Virus record (IMG/VR): IMGVR_UViG_2925903241_000005
Location: 1 to 46,437 of that record
Direction: 5' to 3' (one strand)
DNA length: 46,437 nt
From: a virus
Taxonomy: Duplodnaviria; Heunggongvirae; Uroviricota; Caudoviricetes
Under the pieces are notes generated by a model, which was not told where the DNA came from, made no database searches, and was given only the letters and a program-made list of their open reading frames with translations. This document shows, piece by piece, positions 1-43,719 of this stretch (position 1 is the first letter of the stretch; each line of letters begins with the position of its first letter). The position numbers were made by a program, and so were the translations under genes.

Positions 1-207
1 ATGCCAAACGGCGCTGTGGACGCGTTAAAGGAAGAATTAACTCGACGCATCAGTAAGCGTTATGACGATGTAGAGGTGATCGTAAAAGCCACCAGCAACG
101 ATGGCCTTTCTGTTACACGCACTGCCGATAAAGATTCAGCTAAAACTTTTGTTCAGGAGACTCTGAAAGATACCTGGGAATCTGCTGACGAGTGGTTTGT
201 TCACTAA
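1..207 (+). CDS. dinI: DinI-family protein, C-terminal part (5' end outside window)
   Basis: Translation ends ...[16 protein letters not shown], matching the conserved C-terminus of DinI-like SOS proteins; ORF runs off the window start. Confidence 0.6.
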
Positions 208-275
208 TTAACACGTAAAATCGGTAACGGCTTGAAATCATTAAATACTCGCCCTATCGAAAGCTCACCAGCCAG

Positions 276-309
276 CCGCAACACGTTCTTACATATGACG
301 TGTCTGCGG
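276..309. repeat. imperfect palindromic element, copy 1 (CCGCAACACGT-N11-ACGTGTCTGCGG)
   Basis: Inverted repeat read directly; a second copy with about 31 of 37 matching positions is at 2743..2776. Confidence 0.5.
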
Positions 310-323
310 TTTCAACTCCACCA

Positions 324-357
324 GCCCACCAATCATGATTGGGCTTTTTCGTTTTTC
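324..357 (+). terminator. putative rho-independent terminator downstream of dinI-like gene
   Basis: GC-containing hairpin (gcccaccaatcat/gattgggc) followed by a T-run (ctttttcgttttt). Confidence 0.4.
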
Positions 358-486
358 TTCACCTGCAAGCAAACCGTTGTATCATGGCGGAATGAAGATG
401 AGCTAGGAATAATCTTATGAATCAGCTCAATATTCATATAAAAACATTTCGAACTTTGGTGTACAAAACTACATAGGGATAACTTT

Positions 487-1689
487 ATGTCTCTTCGTTT
501 CAGACAAACCTTTACTTTATTTCCTGGCGTTCGACTCAACATTGGCAAGCGTGGAATAAGTGCAAGCATTGGCATGCCTGGCGCAACTGTCAATGTTGGT
601 AAAAAAGGGGTTAGAGCAACTGTCGGATTACCGGGCACAGGCTTATCTTATACTACACCTACCTTGCCCTATGATGATGGATACTCAGTTACCAATCCAT
701 TAAATCCAGCCCCTACAGAACCTCATTTGGGGTCTGGGTCATCTCCAGAAAACACACCATCGAACGCTAAAATATATATGCCTGTAGCTGGCATGAATGA
801 AATATCCAGCGCTTCGGTAGAAGTCCTTACAAGTACCTCCCTTTTACCTTTACGAGATTTGATTGCTAAAGCACGAGAACAAAGAGCAGAGATAAAAGCA
901 GATCTTCAAGAGGCTCTTGCCGAAGAATCAAAACAAAAAAGCGAGCTGGCTCGACGCAAATCAAGTCTATTCCGTTGGTTTTACAAACGACGCATCGCAG
1001 AACTTGAGACACTACTCCCCCTAACCCAAGCTGAGATATCTCGCCTAGTTTCATGGGAAGACAGCACAAAAATAGCCATAACATTCGAGAGCAGTGATGC
1101 TTCACAGCGCGCATATGCAGCGATGGTCCATGCATTTGATATGTTAAAATCGAGTGTCAAAAAATGGGATATTACTGCAGATAAAGCTACAGACCAGTTT
1201 GCTGAAAGAACATTAGCAACCCGGTCTGTTAATCGTCACCCAGTTACCTTTGATTTTAGTTCAACGGATCTCATTCAATTTACAGGGCGTGCGATGAGGT
1301 TTGAAAATGCAAATGGAGACGATATTTTGCTTTATCCTGGAGTTGCAGTCATACCACGAGCCGATGGAGCATTCGCTCTGATTGATTTACGCGAATTACA
1401 AATTAGTTCAGAATATCTAAGATTCCATGAGGAAGAAGGTGTTCCCAGTGACTCACGCATAGATGGTTATACATGGGCGAAAACGAATAAGAATGGCTCA
1501 CCAGACCGTCGTTTTAAAGACAACTACCAAATCCCTATTTGCATTTATGGAAATATTACTTTCCATTCTCAAACAGGGGTAACTGAAGAATATATGGTAT
1601 CAAATGCAGATGCCGCGCACGCCTTTGCTGAGGCAGTAAAACGCTATCAGATTTCACTCACAGAAACAGAAGCGTTGGTACAAGCCTAA
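487..1689 (+). CDS. DUF4236-domain protein (N-terminal NIGKRGIS-type motif) with uncharacterised C-terminal domain
   Basis: 400-aa ORF; N-terminus FPGVRLNIGKRGISASIGMPG...VGLPGTGLSY resembles the DUF4236 signature from memory; sits outside the tail-fibre end of the prophage. Confidence 0.45.
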   Translation: MSLRFRQTFTLFPGVRLNIGKRGISASIGMPGATVNVGKKGVRATVGLPGTGLSYTTPTLPYDDGYSVTNPLNPAPTEPHLGSGSSPENTPSNAKIYMPVAGMNEISSASVEVLTSTSLLPLRDLIAKAREQRAEIKADLQEALAEESKQKSELARRKSSLFRWFYKRRIAELETLLPLTQAEISRLVSWEDSTKIAITFESSDASQRAYAAMVHAFDMLKSSVKKWDITADKATDQFAERTLATRSVNRHPVTFDFSSTDLIQFTGRAMRFENANGDDILLYPGVAVIPRADGAFALIDLRELQISSEYLRFHEEEGVPSDSRIDGYTWAKTNKNGSPDRRFKDNYQIPICIYGNITFHSQTGVTEEYMVSNADAAHAFAEAVKRYQISLTETEALVQA

Positions 1690-1885
1690 TTTATCGCCGA
1701 TATGGGGACGAATCGTAGGTTAAAACCCCTCGAACAAAAAAACCTTAAGAACCAGACTATTATGGCTGGTTCTTATACGGAGGATTTGTTATTGTACAAC
1801 TCTTCTATCTGGTATATTTACGGATAGAACTGTTCGGGCTACTCAATCCTTTTTAAGTACAAATGAACAGATAGAAATAGTTATA

Positions 1886-2688
1886 TTGCAAGGAGCTATC
1901 ATGCACACTGAGTATATATGGCGATATCTTGACATAGAGAAATTCTCTATGTTACTCGAACAAAATGCTTTATTTTTTTGCTCAGCAAAAAATTTTGAAG
2001 ATCCGTTCGAAGGTGAATTTGCTTGGGGACATACTGGCTATAAAAAATTCATTGAGACACAGGAAAAACTATGCGCTACTCATGGTGCCGGCATGGACTT
2101 AGAGCCTTTCATGGCATTCAATTTAAAGACACCTAAGGAAATAAGCGAGAGGACATATATAAGTTGCTGGCATTGTAACGAACATGAATCTGAAGCTATG
2201 TGGAAGCTGTATTGTAAAAACCCCGCTAAAGGCGTTGTCATAAAATCAAAGAAAAAAACCTCCAAAGCCAACTTGAAAATAATAATCTAAACAAACTACA
2301 ATTAAAACACGTAAAATACGTCAAAAATTTCTGGATAAAACAATACAATCCAGAATCAGATGTATTCTTTAACAAGAGACCATCTTTCGAACACGAAAAA
2401 GAGTTTAGAGCTATTTTTCAAGAGAATACCTTTAACACTCCACCTGTAAAGGGAAAACTAGTCCCTGTATCTCTTAATAATCTGTTGGAAGAAATAAGGA
2501 TTTCACCTTTCGCAGATAAGGATTTCAAAAATGAAGTTTTACAAATTTCAAAAAAATATGGACTAGATCTAAAAGTCAAAAACTCTGAAATTGAAATGCA
2601 TCCCATCATGCATGTTGAGGAAGAAATAATTGCAGAAGGCCCCAATTGGTATCAGTCAAAAATCAGGTTGGCAATACGTGATGCTTAA
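1886..2688 (+). pseudogene. DUF2971-family gene interrupted by a frameshift in an A7 tract (near 2252..2258)
   Basis: Frame of 1886..2290 carries DUF2971-like motifs (FFCSAKNFEDPFEGEF; CWHCNEHESEAMWKLYCKNPAKGVV). Reading frame -1 is open from about 2230 to 2688 and continues a sensible protein (..LQSQLENNNLNKLQLKHVKYVKNFWIKQYNPE..). The two frames meet at 'aaagaaaaaaacc'. Confidence 0.55.
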
Positions 2689-2742
2689 TCTTATATTGAA
2701 GTTTTTTATGTCTCCTGCTGAAACTAGCTAAAATTTACCAAG

Positions 2743-2776
2743 CCGCAGCACGTTATTGCATACAACGTGTATGCGG
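2743..2776. repeat. imperfect palindromic element, copy 2 (CCGCAGCACGT-N11-ACGTGTATGCGG)
   Basis: Same element as 276..309; lies just downstream of the tail-fibre stop and may also act as its terminator hairpin. Confidence 0.5.
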
Positions 2777-2974
2777 CGTATCTCAAAACGATTACTCCAT
2801 AACAGGGACAGCAGGCCACTCAATATCCGGTGCTACTGATGTATCAACACGGTTCAGCAACACCCGATACTTCTTCCAGGCTTCCAGCAACAAGGTTTCT
2901 TCCTCCGTTGCGATTTCCAGCTCAACAACAGTCTGAACGTACCGGGAACAGCCTCCTTCAGAGCTTGAAGGATA

Positions 2975-5900
2975 TCAATGTTCGCTTCCTGTTAACTGCC
3001 GGACAAGTGCAACCAGTTCGCTTACCTGATTTTCCAGAGTGCTGATCCGGGTGCCTGCTGTTGCCAGATTTTGACGTAGCGTTGTGTTTTCCTCTTCCAG
3101 CGCGGTAACGCGATCATCTGTTTCACGGGCGACCTGAACAAGTAAACCCGTCACGGCGGCGTAGTCAACATTAAGATAGCGCGTTTCTTCGCGTAGCTTG
3201 TTGCCGTCAACGGTCGGACCTTGCAACTCTTCACCATAATGAGTAAACGATCCCACAGCTTCTGGTATCGCCTCCATTACTTCCTGTGCAATAACGCCAG
3301 CATAAGGCAGGCCGTTTTCCTTGAGCGTGTAGGTGTAACCGTTCATTTTGCGGATTGCTTTCGTCGCGTCGCTGATAACGCGAATATCGTCTTTAAGGTC
3401 GCGGTCTGATGACTGATTCAGCGTTGTGCAATTAATAGCGCCATTTACATCAAACAACTGGCCTGCTGGTGTTCTTTGCGCATAAAACAGATACGCAGCA
3501 GACGTTGCAACCTCAAAAACGTTTTGTCGATCACTTGACCCCCAGACCGCGATGCTAACTGGCAGTTCTGAATTACCTGAATTAAGTAAAGCAAAACGAT
3601 TGCCAGTCCCTGTTTGTTTTCTAATTACTAAATCGGCAGTTGAGTTAACCTCATCTTTGTTGATGGTTAGCGCCTGCGCTGTAGCACCGTTAACAGTGCC
3701 ACTTAGTAGTTGAACCGCTCCATCATCGCCATTTAACAGCACTTGAGCGCTGCTTCTGTGGTTTTTCAGGAACAACTTTTTGCCTGTGCTTTCTGATGTG
3801 CCTACCGACCACGCCGAATTGGTTCCAGTGCTATCAACACCACGAACGGTACAATTCATGCTGCCATAATCTGACGTACTTCCAAGCACATCAATCCGCC
3901 CGCCACCTAATTTTGATGGAGTCGTCGAGGTTAACGACCTGACGGTTACATCCTGATTCCATCCTGAAACAACTACCTGACTCCACTCCGTCCAGTTTCC
4001 ATTGACAACAAAGCGAACGTATATGCGTTTTGTGTCGCTGCCAATCAGCGTTTGCATGATCGCATAATCTGAACCCGTAGTTTTACGAGTAGATTCTACA
4101 CGTAGCAAAAAGTTACCGCTTACGCCGTCAGGCTTATTGGTAATATATGCACCACCTGCAACAGTTTTGCATTGATAGTATTTAACAGATCCAGCCACTG
4201 TATTAGCAATGATCAAGTCGTTTAAATCAATAGTCTTGTTGTCAATGGTTTCCGGCTCGATAGATCCCGCCATACCTGCGTTAAATGTGGCAAAGTCAGA
4301 AAAGGTTGTTTTACCGCCTACCGTCACCCCGCTATCGAGTTTTGCTTGTGTGATTACTTTGCTGTTTTTTGTGTGGTCAGAATAACTACCAAAATACAAA
4401 TCACCGTCACCAGCTATACCCAGGTATTTTTGATCAACATCATCAACCTTAAACCCAATGGACAAGTTTTTAATTGTGTTGTTGCTCGTTAAAACCAAAG
4501 GCGTATGCTGAGATCCTTTGATGCTTACCGTAGTGTTATCGGAACTGGTGCTTGTGTTTGCAAATTCTGCGGTGGCTGCGCTGATTTTGTAAGTTATTTT
4601 TAGATTGCGGGCCTCAACCCTCCCGTCGTGGCGAACAATAAAATCACCACTTGATTCACCTTTTGTGTTTTTCGCCCTGATGTGGATTTCGCCAAGTGAT
4701 TCGTTGTTTTCAGGCGACCAAACAACGCCGCGCTCGCTTCCGTCGTTGTTCATGAACCACAGATGAGCGGTTCCTTTTGCTGATTTTAGCCTGATAGATG
4801 GCGTTTCTTTCAATATATCAAGATCACCAGACATAACATCGCCGGATTTTTTCACCTGCGCATCGTTAGTTACGTTGCCAAGTCCAACATCCGATTTCGA
4901 CGGCTTGTTTGCCGAGCCGTATAGCTCATTGATGCTAAAAGTCCCGTTGTTAAGCCGGGCATCGTTGCCGGCATAGATCTTAATCTTCGCGGTTGAGTAG
5001 TCGATATTGATCGCTGACCACGTATCGCCGCACCGCGAGAATATACCAGAACCGTGGCTATAAATGGTCGCCGTGCTTCCGGTCGGCTTATCACCGCGCC
5101 AGAAATGACCACCTTTGTCACGCAGAGCTTTTAAGATCTCTACATCGCTCATCTTGCCGTTTGTTGATATCCCGCTACCGCCAAGACCGAAAGCGCCTGT
5201 AAGCATAGCATTAGAAAGACCCAAATCTGCTTTAGTCGGCTTGTTTAACTGGTCGTAAATCCTTACAACGGGGCTTTCAACATATCCAGAAGGCGCGGCG
5301 GTTTGCTTAACAAATCCGTCTGGAATGTATAATTCCGGGCGTGCCGTCTGCGCCAGCACCGCAACCTTTGCGCCGTTGATAAATGCGCGCTGGAAGGCCC
5401 AAACCTCAATAAAGCCGTCACCTTTAACCAGGCCGTAACGCATCTGGTTGTTATCGGTCAGCCCGGTTGACCCTAAGCGGCGTATACTCAGATGACGAGA
5501 AACATTATCCGCACTAAGCAAAGAAGGCAGACCGCGCGCCGAGATCTCGATAAAGTCAATGTTTCCGTAAGGGGAGCCGTAGTTACCGGCATTAGTAACC
5601 ATTAGCGTTACATGGCAATTGCCGCTTCCGGGATCGGAAAGTTTCGCGATCTTTATGTAAAAAGACTCATTACCAGTAACAACGGGCCAATCGTATTGCG
5701 TCATCGGGCTGACGAGTCCCCCGACCTTGTCGAGATATTCTTTCGCCTTGTTCTCTGACGCTTTAGCGTTGGTTTCGCTGACCTTTGCTGCTGCCTCACT
5801 ATTTTTCGCGTTGGTTTCTGATTTTTTGGCTGCTGTCGCGGAGTTTGCCGATGCAGTTTGTGAGTCTGCTGCCGCCTGTGCGCTGTTATCCGCATTCGTC

Positions 5901-6739
5901 TCAGACGTTTTTGCGGCCTTCGCGGAATTTCCTGCTGCCGTTGCCGAGGAAGCTGCACTGCCGGCGCTCGAGGCAGCGCTCGTTTCTGATGATTTTGCCG
6001 CCACTTTTGAAGCCGACGCATCCCGGGCTGAGGTGGCAGCTTCTGACGCTTTCGTGGTCGCGGTGGATGCAGATGTGGCCGCAGATTTTTGTGATGCTGC
6101 GGCATTCATTTCCGACGTTTTCGCTGCACCGGCACTGGTGGCTGCCGCGCTTTTTGAAGACTCTGCGGCGGCAGCACTTTTTGATGCTTCAGTGGCCTTT
6201 GTTGATGCCGTTCCTGCGCTGGAAGACGCTGACTGAGCCGACGACGCGGCCTGTCCGGCTGACGTGCTGGCTGCACGTGCTGAGCCTGCAGCATCAGTCG
6301 CACGGGTTGCCGCCTCACGGGCTGATGTGCTGGCATCGCTGGCTGACTTCTTCGCGGCTGCCGTGTTCTGTGCCACCGCGGACGCGTTACGCGCCACCTC
6401 TTCCACCATCAGTTCAAAACGGCGCAGTGCCTCAGGACGGGCATCATCCTCCGTCATGGCACCGAGAAAATCATTCAGCGTACCGGGTCGGGAATCTTCA
6501 TACACGGTGATGGTCCCGGCATGTGACGGCGGGAATCCTTCCACCAACAGAATAACGCTGTACTGACCGTACTCAACGTCCATGCTGTAACGCCCGGCTT
6601 CATCCGGATTTTCTGAGGCCAGCGTGTTCACCACCACCGTGGTACTGTTACGTTTTGCTTTCAGCTGGATTGTGCAGTTCTGTACCGGTTTTCCTGTGCC
6701 GTCTTTCAGTACACCTGAAATCTTTACTGCCATATTCAC
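2975..6739 (-). CDS. stf: side tail fibre protein: lambda Stf-like N-terminus, long Ala/Ser/Thr-rich repeat region, C-terminal S74 intramolecular-chaperone domain
   Basis: N-terminus MAVKISGVLKDGTGKPVQNCTIQLKA... matches lambda Stf; C-terminus ...DGNKLREETRYLNVDYAAVTGLLVQVARE..TALEEENTTLRQ resembles the endosialidase-chaperone domain; 1254 aa versus about 774 aa for lambda Stf. Confidence 0.85.
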   Translation of the reverse strand: MNMAVKISGVLKDGTGKPVQNCTIQLKAKRNSTTVVVNTLASENPDEAGRYSMDVEYGQYSVILLVEGFPPSHAGTITVYEDSRPGTLNDFLGAMTEDDARPEALRRFELMVEEVARNASAVAQNTAAAKKSASDASTSAREAATRATDAAGSARAASTSAGQAASSAQSASSSAGTASTKATEASKSAAAAESSKSAAATSAGAAKTSEMNAAASQKSAATSASTATTKASEAATSARDASASKVAAKSSETSAASSAGSAASSATAAGNSAKAAKTSETNADNSAQAAADSQTASANSATAAKKSETNAKNSEAAAKVSETNAKASENKAKEYLDKVGGLVSPMTQYDWPVVTGNESFYIKIAKLSDPGSGNCHVTLMVTNAGNYGSPYGNIDFIEISARGLPSLLSADNVSRHLSIRRLGSTGLTDNNQMRYGLVKGDGFIEVWAFQRAFINGAKVAVLAQTARPELYIPDGFVKQTAAPSGYVESPVVRIYDQLNKPTKADLGLSNAMLTGAFGLGGSGISTNGKMSDVEILKALRDKGGHFWRGDKPTGSTATIYSHGSGIFSRCGDTWSAINIDYSTAKIKIYAGNDARLNNGTFSINELYGSANKPSKSDVGLGNVTNDAQVKKSGDVMSGDLDILKETPSIRLKSAKGTAHLWFMNNDGSERGVVWSPENNESLGEIHIRAKNTKGESSGDFIVRHDGRVEARNLKITYKISAATAEFANTSTSSDNTTVSIKGSQHTPLVLTSNNTIKNLSIGFKVDDVDQKYLGIAGDGDLYFGSYSDHTKNSKVITQAKLDSGVTVGGKTTFSDFATFNAGMAGSIEPETIDNKTIDLNDLIIANTVAGSVKYYQCKTVAGGAYITNKPDGVSGNFLLRVESTRKTTGSDYAIMQTLIGSDTKRIYVRFVVNGNWTEWSQVVVSGWNQDVTVRSLTSTTPSKLGGGRIDVLGSTSDYGSMNCTVRGVDSTGTNSAWSVGTSESTGKKLFLKNHRSSAQVLLNGDDGAVQLLSGTVNGATAQALTINKDEVNSTADLVIRKQTGTGNRFALLNSGNSELPVSIAVWGSSDRQNVFEVATSAAYLFYAQRTPAGQLFDVNGAINCTTLNQSSDRDLKDDIRVISDATKAIRKMNGYTYTLKENGLPYAGVIAQEVMEAIPEAVGSFTHYGEELQGPTVDGNKLREETRYLNVDYAAVTGLLVQVARETDDRVTALEEENTTLRQNLATAGTRISTLENQVSELVALVRQLTGSEH

Positions 6740-42328: not shown

Positions 42329-42538
42329 ATGGCAAAACTAATGAAAGCGAGCCAATGGGGACGCCGTGAATTCTCTAATGGCTCAATTCCTGACAACCGA
42401 ACGATAAAACGCTGGGTCGAGAACGGTCTGCTCATGGGGCGTATCGTGGACGGTTCTGTTTTTGTCTGCGAAACAGAAAAATGGGGAGTCGACTCAATGG
42501 TTAGTCAAGCTGTTCGCAAGTTAATAAATGAGGGATGA
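42329..42538 (+). CDS. xis: excisionase (Xis-like)
   Basis: About 69 aa from ATG after a GGAG RBS; ..RTIKRWVENGLLMGRIVDGSVFVCE.. resembles excisionase winged-helix; stop overlaps the int start (ATGA). Confidence 0.6.
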   Translation: MAKLMKASQWGRREFSNGSIPDNRTIKRWVENGLLMGRIVDGSVFVCETEKWGVDSMVSQAVRKLINEG

Positions 42539-43719
42539 CCATGGCGGCAAGGCCACGTAAAAAAGAATACAGACATCTTCCTGATTATCTGGTTTTTGAT
42601 AAAGATCGAGGTGTTTATAAATTCACACTTATTACCGGAAAAAAGAAAAATATAGGTAAGGATCGGGCAATAGCCGTTGCAATCGCCAGAGAGTACAACC
42701 TGAGGATGCGATCAGAATTATACCCATCAGTGGATAATCTTATTAGAGAATCTGGCGGGGTCACCGGAGAAGCAAAACCATTTGCTGAACATGTCGATCA
42801 CATAATGGCCAGAATTATCGAAGACGAACGACCTTCCCAGAGTACCTTAGATGACTGGAAAAATGACGCTCTACGCGTAAAAGCGTTTTTCGTAAATGTT
42901 CCGGCATGCGATATCGAACTTGAACACGTTAATGCCTACATCAACAAATATCATGCCAGCGCATCCGCAAATGTGCAGAACAGAAAGGTCAGCTTTCTTA
43001 AAAAGTTGTTCTCTTATGCGGTCGATGAATCACTAATGCAGGATAACCCGGCCATCAGAAAAAAAATGCGTAGGACTGATGAGAAGAAAAGACGGCGCCT
43101 GTCACTCGAACATTTTATAGCTATCAGGCAGGCCGCTGCACCATGGTTAAGAACAGCAATGGACCTAGCATTGCAGACTACACATGCACGACTCGAAGTA
43201 TCGCGAATCCGTTACTCAATTCGCGAACCTAAAGACGGTTTATGTGGATGTGTTTGGTTCGAACAACCACAAAATGGCATATATGGTACACTATACATCC
43301 ATAGGCAAAAAGTACAAAAAAAGGAGGCATCACATGTTGCAATACCAATTGGTGAAGAATTGAAACGGATAATTGACAATAGCCGTGACAATGTGGCCAG
43401 TCCCTTTGTCGTTCATAGAATCCCAGAACGGCATGTTAAACGCAGTAAAGAGGTTTCGCACCCAACTCAAGTTGCACCAGATTATTTGAGTCGGTCATTC
43501 TCTTCCGTGCGAGACAAACTCGGACTATGCAATCATCTAGCAATGGAACAAAGACCTACATTCCATGAAATAAGAGCTTTGGCAGCTCACCTATTTGATA
43601 AACAAGGGATTGATCCGCAGGGACGAATGGCACATAGCGATGCGAAATCTACTAAAATTTATACTAAAAATCATATAGATTGGATTGTTGTCCCTCATGG
43701 AGAAATTAAAACCGGTTAG
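42535..43719 (+). CDS. int: tyrosine integrase (lambda Int family)
   Basis: 394 aa; ..PTFHEIRALAAHLF.. and ..AHSDAKSTKIYTKNH.. catalytic-region motifs; position at the prophage end after xis. Confidence 0.9.
   Translation: MTMAARPRKKEYRHLPDYLVFDKDRGVYKFTLITGKKKNIGKDRAIAVAIAREYNLRMRSELYPSVDNLIRESGGVTGEAKPFAEHVDHIMARIIEDERPSQSTLDDWKNDALRVKAFFVNVPACDIELEHVNAYINKYHASASANVQNRKVSFLKKLFSYAVDESLMQDNPAIRKKMRRTDEKKRRRLSLEHFIAIRQAAAPWLRTAMDLALQTTHARLEVSRIRYSIREPKDGLCGCVWFEQPQNGIYGTLYIHRQKVQKKEASHVAIPIGEELKRIIDNSRDNVASPFVVHRIPERHVKRSKEVSHPTQVAPDYLSRSFSSVRDKLGLCNHLAMEQRPTFHEIRALAAHLFDKQGIDPQGRMAHSDAKSTKIYTKNHIDWIVVPHGEIKTG

Follow-up and report, generated by a model that had tools for sequence, protein, structure and literature searches.

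A DUF2971 gene of a partly decayed lambdoid prophage in Escherichia coli is interrupted at a homopolymeric adenine run

Introduction

The stretch of DNA analysed here (the window, 46,437 nucleotides) is a lambdoid prophage; its head and tail genes are lambda-like, and its early region is of the yfdN-yfdR type. A preliminary description of the window had placed, beyond the tail fibre, a DUF2971-family gene that was split over two adjacent reading frames at a run of seven adenines (A7). Three explanations had been offered for this split, namely a decayed cargo gene, a sequencing error in the homopolymer, or a slippage switch in the A tract controlling a putative defence or accessory gene, and a paralogous intact copy had been reported at the other prophage end. 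The question raised by this locus is thus whether one gene is truly interrupted here and, if it is, whether the interruption is an artefact, a device or a loss.

Results

One gene is split over two frames at a run of seven adenines

The gene lies beyond the tail fibre, as had been described, and is the outermost gene on the phage side there. In the ORF listing, its upstream part lies in frame 2, from TTG 1886 or ATG 1901 to a TAA stop at 2288-2290, and its downstream part lies in frame 1, which is open from 2230 (after a stop at 2227-2229) to the TAA at 2686-2688. The A7 run at 2252-2258 is the sole long homopolymer within the 2230-2290 overlap and has the context AAG AAA AAA ACC in the upstream frame. 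With eight adenines (A8) at the tract, one uninterrupted ORF of 262 aa was restored, and the comparison of orthologs that had been proposed for such a restoring allele found it present, as a single ORF, in other E. coli genomes. The parts of the gene are as follows.

1901..2290, plus strand: 5' part of the DUF2971 gene, 129 codons plus stop
1973..1979, plus strand: T7 run within the gene, with secondary frameshifts to T8 on haplotype I (65COLEC, PSJ-29) and haplotype II (98218)
2252..2258, plus strand: frameshift site, an A7 homopolymer; A8 gives the 262-aa ORF, and A6 occurs in other strains
2259..2688, plus strand: 3' part of the gene, read in the -1 frame with respect to the start; this frame is open from 2230
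2550..2556, plus strand: second A7 run within the gene; the 229-aa database allele P0095, on another haplotype, leaves the frame at about this point

When the pieces were searched against the Pfam DUF2971 model (PF11185), the 5' half alone gave no match, and the 3' half alone scored 14.6 bits (E 0.089) against a gathering score of 22 bits. The A8-restored 262-aa protein scored 29.2 bits (E 2.4e-6) over residues 100-170, a match that spans the frameshift site. Since the restored protein passes the gathering score and its match crosses the junction, the split is a true interruption of one gene, and this part of the preliminary description was borne out by the reading frames, the domain search and the co-linear homologues alike.

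The 5' ORF had been taken to begin at 1886, and its frame is indeed open there; the likely start, however, is ATG 1901, which has an AGGAG at 1891-1895 and agrees with the homologues, leaving TTG 1886 as an upstream in-frame alternative. RefSeq/PGAP annotation starts instead at ATG 1949, giving 246 aa for the intact gene and 113 aa for the A7 form, and this start cuts off a conserved N-terminal WRY motif (W7, R8 and Y9, counted from ATG 1901). In the 129-aa product of the A7 allele, residues 1-119 are authentic and the last ten (TSKANLKIII) are out of frame. The 3' part codes for the invariant residues Y140, K159, E166, E168, R170 and P203, all of which the A7 allele leaves untranslated. When positions 1600-2900 were scanned for promoters and terminators, sites were no commoner than in shuffled sequence.

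The restored protein is a DarT-like member of the DUF2971 family

The restored protein matched four PADLOC PDC-S31 models, with E values of 9.6e-22, 4.2e-10, 1.8e-7 and 3.5e-6. In a database search, 74 homologues were retrieved from Enterobacter, Pseudomonas, Herbaspirillum, Acinetobacter, Pectobacterium and metagenomes; most have lengths of about 240-330 aa, and they align co-linearly across the frameshift site. In a 46-sequence alignment, D34, E37, C89, W90, W101, Y140, K159, E166, E168, R170 and P203 were invariant, with E166 and E168 lying within the sequence FEHEKEF. DUF2971 has been predicted to be an ADP-ribosyltransferase (ART) family near DarT/AbiGi, in which a tyrosine and an ExE motif are conserved (PMC12522546), and following this work E166-x-E168 is assigned, from the alignment, as the putative catalytic ExE of motif III.

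No PDB chain was matched by phmmer at E values up to 1, so a fold search was used instead. The AlphaFold2 model of P0011, a 98%-identical cluster representative, had a pLDDT of 92.6 and a pTM of 0.84 and showed the ART fold of the DarT-like ADP-ribosyltransferase superfamily. The frameshift falls directly after strand 111-117 of this model. The 129-aa product retains D34, E37, C89, W90 and W101 and ends before Y140, K159, E166, E168, R170 and the residues beyond, from which we infer that it cannot be catalytically active. The intact gene encodes a DarT-like protein with the ADP-ribosyltransferase fold, of DUF2971 / PADLOC PDC-S31, and is a candidate anti-phage toxin.

A search of a phage collection returned only one distant match (an Acinetobacter phage, 27% identity), so the gene is carried by no sequenced phage. 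Orthologues about 80% identical occupy comparable cargo positions, either behind ogr where a P2-like prophage ends (Enterobacter) or beside an integrase. The position of the gene at a prophage end beside an att remnant, together with that of the orthologues at a P2-like prophage end, would support a role in phage resistance.

Eight adenines is the majority state and seven is widespread

The locus was found in 121-122 of 5426 complete E. coli genomes. Among 121 complete genomes with the locus, about 85 had A8, 34 had A7 and two had A6; this census rests on a 410-base haplotype query plus samples of every second row, and the figure of about 85 includes 61 rows assigned by inference from those samples. 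The A8 genes are annotated as "DUF2971 domain-containing protein". Half of the A7 genomes (17/34), complete genomes from independent laboratories, match the window at 100% identity over 1061 bases, and all 17 of these window-type genomes are A7, including six genomes of Ec-050 and the T0/T5/T20 evolved lines. Both A6 genomes also carry T8 at 1973-1979, which was read directly only in 98218; for DETEC-P169, A6 and T8 were assigned because its match pattern was identical to that of 98218.

Contigs were counted in a 15-billion-protein collection of public assemblies from several sources, with the following result.

A7 with 78P (the window's own allele): 355 contigs as 113-aa calls, 138 as 129-aa calls
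A7 with 78L: 347 contigs as 113-aa calls, 316 as 129-aa calls
A8, four haplotypes: 302, 86, 8 and 878 contigs as 246-aa calls; three of them 152, 213 and 1 as 262-aa calls

As the exact A7 allele is present in 34 complete genomes and its product on hundreds of contigs, it is not a sequencing error, and that explanation of the split was dropped. When frameshifted loci were fetched with enough flank, all 14 of 14 lay at proL, with a DinI-like gene that was frameshifted too; A8 alleles were found at proL, at prfC and elsewhere.

The run has probably changed length repeatedly, and carriers of the shortened run hold further lesions

Two haplotypes are set by four SNPs flanking the tract, at 1942, 2320, 2458 and 2701, and the tract lengths are distributed over them as follows.

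Haplotype I: A8 in OHT76-1 and 4114; A7 in many genomes, including the window; A6 in none
Haplotype II: A8 in 15 genomes; A7 in CT282 and in two genomes of ST131, of which one was read directly and the other assigned from its match; A6 in 98218 and DETEC-P169 (inferred)

Because A7 occurs on two haplotypes, each of which is also found with A8, the run has most likely contracted at least two times. The simplest reading of these sequences would be at least two independent A8-to-A7 contractions plus one further contraction to A6; alternatively, a gene-conversion patch of less than 378 bp may account for the pattern.

Other lesions accompany the shortened tract. The T7 run at 1973-1979 had become T8 on both haplotypes, and a G was deleted at 2566 among the A7/A6 carriers. 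The private SNPs of these carriers comprised five nonsynonymous changes and one synonymous change, including W7L, which strikes the near-invariant WRY motif, and L78P, which is found in the window's own lineage. Between the A8 haplotypes there were five nonsynonymous and seven synonymous differences; the contrast lies in the expected direction and is not significant (Fisher p 0.15). Five sequenced A8 loci held no further indels. A8 together with L78P (product P0089) was encoded on one 3.1-kb Logan contig only, as against 138-355 contigs for A7 with L78P, and this contig could be a revertant, an ancestor or an assembly error. In all, we count at least three length changes of the A8 run, and frameshifts also arose at two other runs, including in globally spread clinical lineages; the gene has evidently been lost repeatedly at its homopolymers. 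The idea of a decayed cargo gene is supported by these data: A8 is the intact majority allele, and it is the A7 carriers that gather further lesions.

In orthologues about 80% identical, the corresponding position is taken by an A7 that is in frame (AAG AAA AAA ACA CTC), and more distant homologues lack the Lys run (IKTTxxKL). The run is therefore a lineage feature of an AT-rich gene and not a conserved device.

In a separate observation, the A7 carrier HCM-28C-2 (L021) had an IS1A between its DUF4236 and DUF2971 genes (2263-2960, equivalent to about 1700 of the window).

The gene stands at one end of a proL prophage with other pseudogenes

The prophage is integrated at a tRNA-Pro gene (proL), adjoining yejM, and just beyond the window end, at window-equivalent 46876-46929, the tRNA 3' part recurs as a direct repeat of 54 bp. 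Upstream of the DUF2971 gene two features were identified.

487..1689, plus strand: DUF4236 protein of 400 aa, Pfam E 7e-21 at the N-terminus, with a long uncharacterised C-terminal part
1713..1777, plus strand: degenerate 3' part of a tRNA-Pro with its terminator hairpin, local alignment score 67 (500 shuffles, at most 24)

Judged by its sequence, the element at 1713-1777 looks like an old att junction directly upstream of the DUF2971 gene and after the DUF4236 gene. As this remnant is also present in prfC-site prophages, the segment from DinI to DUF4236 may be flank captured in an earlier integration at proL. Nearly all E. coli carriers have an identical DUF4236 protein (WP_001351450.1), which is a constant neighbour in E. 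coli prophages; in isolate 07-4299 its gene is split into two ORFs. DUF4236 was considered as an obligate partner or antitoxin and rejected: it had no PADLOC match, and it is missing beside the orthologues about 80% identical, so it is not an obligate partner.

Pseudogenes elsewhere in the prophage include a DinI-like gene, two methyltransferase genes (one for an N6-adenine enzyme, broken by an internal stop, and one for a DNA methyltransferase, only partial), a hypothetical gene with a frameshift, and tfa, which is truncated. The DinI-like gene begins upstream of position 1, and window positions 1..207 are its 3' part; it was short of one base of an A run in all proL-site prophages examined, whether these had A7 or A8, and was intact in the prfC-site ones.

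The tail-fibre assembly gene (2792-2926, minus strand) is a C-terminal remnant only. The 1254-aa tail fibre next to it (2975-6739, minus strand), which PGAP splits into two features in an identical genome, has a terminal domain annotated in a near-identical genome as S74 peptidase (intramolecular chaperone), and this S74-type end points to a module swap after which tfa was no longer needed. The fibre and tfa modules of other carriers were quite different.

A second, distant DUF2971 gene lies beyond the integrase

The second gene of the family is listed below.

43857..44819, minus strand: second DUF2971 / PDC-S31 gene, intact, 320 aa, with a C-terminal zinc-ribbon-like CxxC...CxxC

Its product matched Pfam DUF2971 at E 1.8e-9 and five PDC-S31 models (best E 3.5e-22). 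The paralogous copy that had been announced at this position is thus intact and of the same family, though it lies on the minus strand and shares only about 20% identity with the frameshifted gene over 76 aa (BLASTP E 0.021), a value by which recent paralogy of the two genes was ruled out. The 320-aa gene is flanked on one side by the prophage integrase (42535..43719) and on the other by a frameshifted fragment of a second integrase (44913..45262); it lies beyond the integrase and still within the stretch that the tRNA-Pro repeats enclose. Next come two hypothetical genes that overlap each other (144 aa and 255 aa, for which PADLOC gave no match) and the outer att repeat. The segment from 43760 to window-equivalent 46929 may represent an islet of cargo or what is left of a tandem element. 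This integrase-distal segment with the 320-aa gene was present in 51-54 complete genomes, about the sum of the 15 haplotype-II A8 genomes and 36 frameshifted genomes, and it accompanies the prophage in its proL version.

Positions 45962-45993, within the 255-aa ORF (45670..46437, minus strand), are identical to a 32-nt type I-E CRISPR spacer of E. coli NY1601 (NZ_CM135959.1), with a canonical AAG PAM on the minus strand. The spacer is the last before an AT-rich flank, which may be the leader. It follows from this match that another E. coli acquired immunity against the integrase-distal segment.

Discussion

A probable fixed loss of function at a mutational hotspot

Most probably, the window holds a dead allele of a prophage accessory (moron) gene, fixed after a loss of function at a mutational hotspot; the locus is best read as a pseudogene that arose at a hotspot homopolymer, in a lambdoid prophage which is itself partly decayed. 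The intact A8 gene, by analogy with Aristaios, would encode a single-gene abortive-infection toxin that uses NAD+ to modify a nucleic-acid or protein target upon phage infection, and modification of this target would block phage transcription or replication. In the strain of the window, replication slippage would have changed A8 to A7; translation now leaves the frame after Lys119 and stops 10 codons on, yielding the 129-aa fragment. As this fragment is without more than half of the fold and without E166-x-E168, the gene is off. The A7 allele is inherited clonally with the lambdoid prophage at tRNA-Pro (proL), and its decay is continuing.

Alternatives to a dead allele

The least improbable alternative to a dead allele is phase variation, in which an A8/A7 contingency tract toggles a costly abortive-infection toxin through slipped-strand mispairing. 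The gene does contain a hypermutable repeat inside its ORF that underwent several independent length changes, A8, A7 and A6 being found among near-identical genes and A7 on two haplotypes; the single contig with A8 and L78P is a possible revertant, orthologues about 80% identical retain an in-frame A7 there, and toxin-type defence genes would be plausible targets of on/off control. We nevertheless hold phase variation to be unlikely, as ON and OFF alleles were not mixed among close relatives, the OFF state being fixed in whole clones, and as the OFF alleles were not otherwise intact and gather frameshifts and damaging substitutions. The KKK stretch is moreover missing in more distant homologues. 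An A run in KKK(N/T) needs no selection, because the gene is AT-rich (34.5% G+C), E. coli usually encodes Lys by AAA, and the same gene has several further runs of 6-7 bases. Where mismatch repair is intact, as in this host, an eight-base run acts as a hotspot of mutation rather than as a switch of high frequency. If the A8 run were instead a low-frequency reversible ON/OFF switch for a costly DarT-like toxin, it would have gone repeatedly OFF and occasionally back, and would be OFF in successful clones (ST131, ST167-like), where the loss is possibly tolerated through the second intact DUF2971 gene; we consider this form of the idea, if anything, a shade less probable still.

A switch by design, as the preliminary description had envisaged, found no backing in a frameshift stimulator or in the orthologues, hypermutable though the tract is. 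That the A7 allele still gives a full-length protein, by -1 ribosomal frameshifting or by transcriptional slippage, is very improbable, even though a -1 shift within 2252-2258 would join both frames and low-level transcriptional slippage on A7 is conceivable. In E. coli, A-rich runs decoded by tRNA-Lys are known to be slippery. The zero-frame heptamer here is G AAA AAA, however, and not X XXY YYZ; the 82 nt downstream fold at -3.4 kcal/mol (z -0.33 against shuffles), which indicates no stimulatory structure, and a Shine-Dalgarno-like element was absent at the usual distance upstream. The shifted layout is also not conserved, all orthologues and about 70% of the E. coli alleles being in frame, and the downstream frame in A7 carriers is not protected from further frameshifts. 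Still more remote is an error of sequencing or assembly in a genome that truly has A8. Homopolymer length errors are frequent in long-read assemblies, and some assemblies here had extra run-length differences, yet 17 independent complete genomes are identical to the window, A7 recurs across 34, and it is linked to lineage-specific SNPs. Least credible of all, to the point of being negligible, is the notion of two separate small genes that were never one ORF. PGAP does mark the 5' piece, and sometimes a 67-aa 3' piece, as separate hypothetical proteins; the homologues, however, are all single co-linear ORFs of about 240-330 aa, none showing two independently conserved small ORFs, and the Pfam domain crosses the junction and passes its threshold only in the joined protein.

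Consequences for annotation

The finding is an ordinary one; what modest interest it has comes from the repeated loss through homopolymers, of which the locus is a small, clean example for AT-rich toxin-type prophage cargo. For annotation it is of practical use, since RefSeq lists the A7 remnant as a "hypothetical protein" of 113 aa and, for the intact gene, uses a start that drops the WRY motif; in counts of defence genes, the locus should be scored as a pseudogene of a DUF2971 / PDC-S31 DarT-like gene. The A8 allele is a handy E. coli representative for DUF2971 ADP-ribosyltransferases, a value that belongs to the family and not to the frameshift.

Comparison with known systems

Aristaios, a DUF2971 protein of 316 aa from a lactococcal plasmid, has been validated by experiment as a single-gene Abi-like system against phages and interferes with their transcription (PMC11381338, PMC13064643). 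The protein described here is likened to it by the DUF2971 domain, the predicted ADP-ribosyltransferase fold, the similar size and the carriage as a single gene on a mobile element. The host is different, and the element is a prophage here and a plasmid there; unlike Aristaios, the copy in the window is frameshifted and so cannot act. PADLOC PDC-S31 is a computational candidate system on which no paper turned up in the library searched; it is matched by the restored protein with four models and by the 320-aa gene with five, while the window allele itself is a pseudogene.

DarT of DarTG, a single-stranded DNA thymidine/guanosine ADP-ribosyltransferase, shares only 9-14% sequence identity with the protein here, and large helical inserts set the two apart. 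A DarG-like macrodomain antitoxin was absent from all loci examined, the neighbours being DUF4236 upstream and the tail-fibre assembly remnant downstream.

Defence genes that are phase-variable through homopolymer tracts include restriction-modification genes in Haemophilus, Neisseria and Campylobacter, and pglX of Streptomyces with its G tract. The locus resembles these in having, within a defence-type ORF, a mononucleotide run whose length differs among strains and sets the frame. It departs from them in that the run is short (8), that the host is mismatch-repair-proficient E. coli, and that the OFF state is clonally fixed and decaying.
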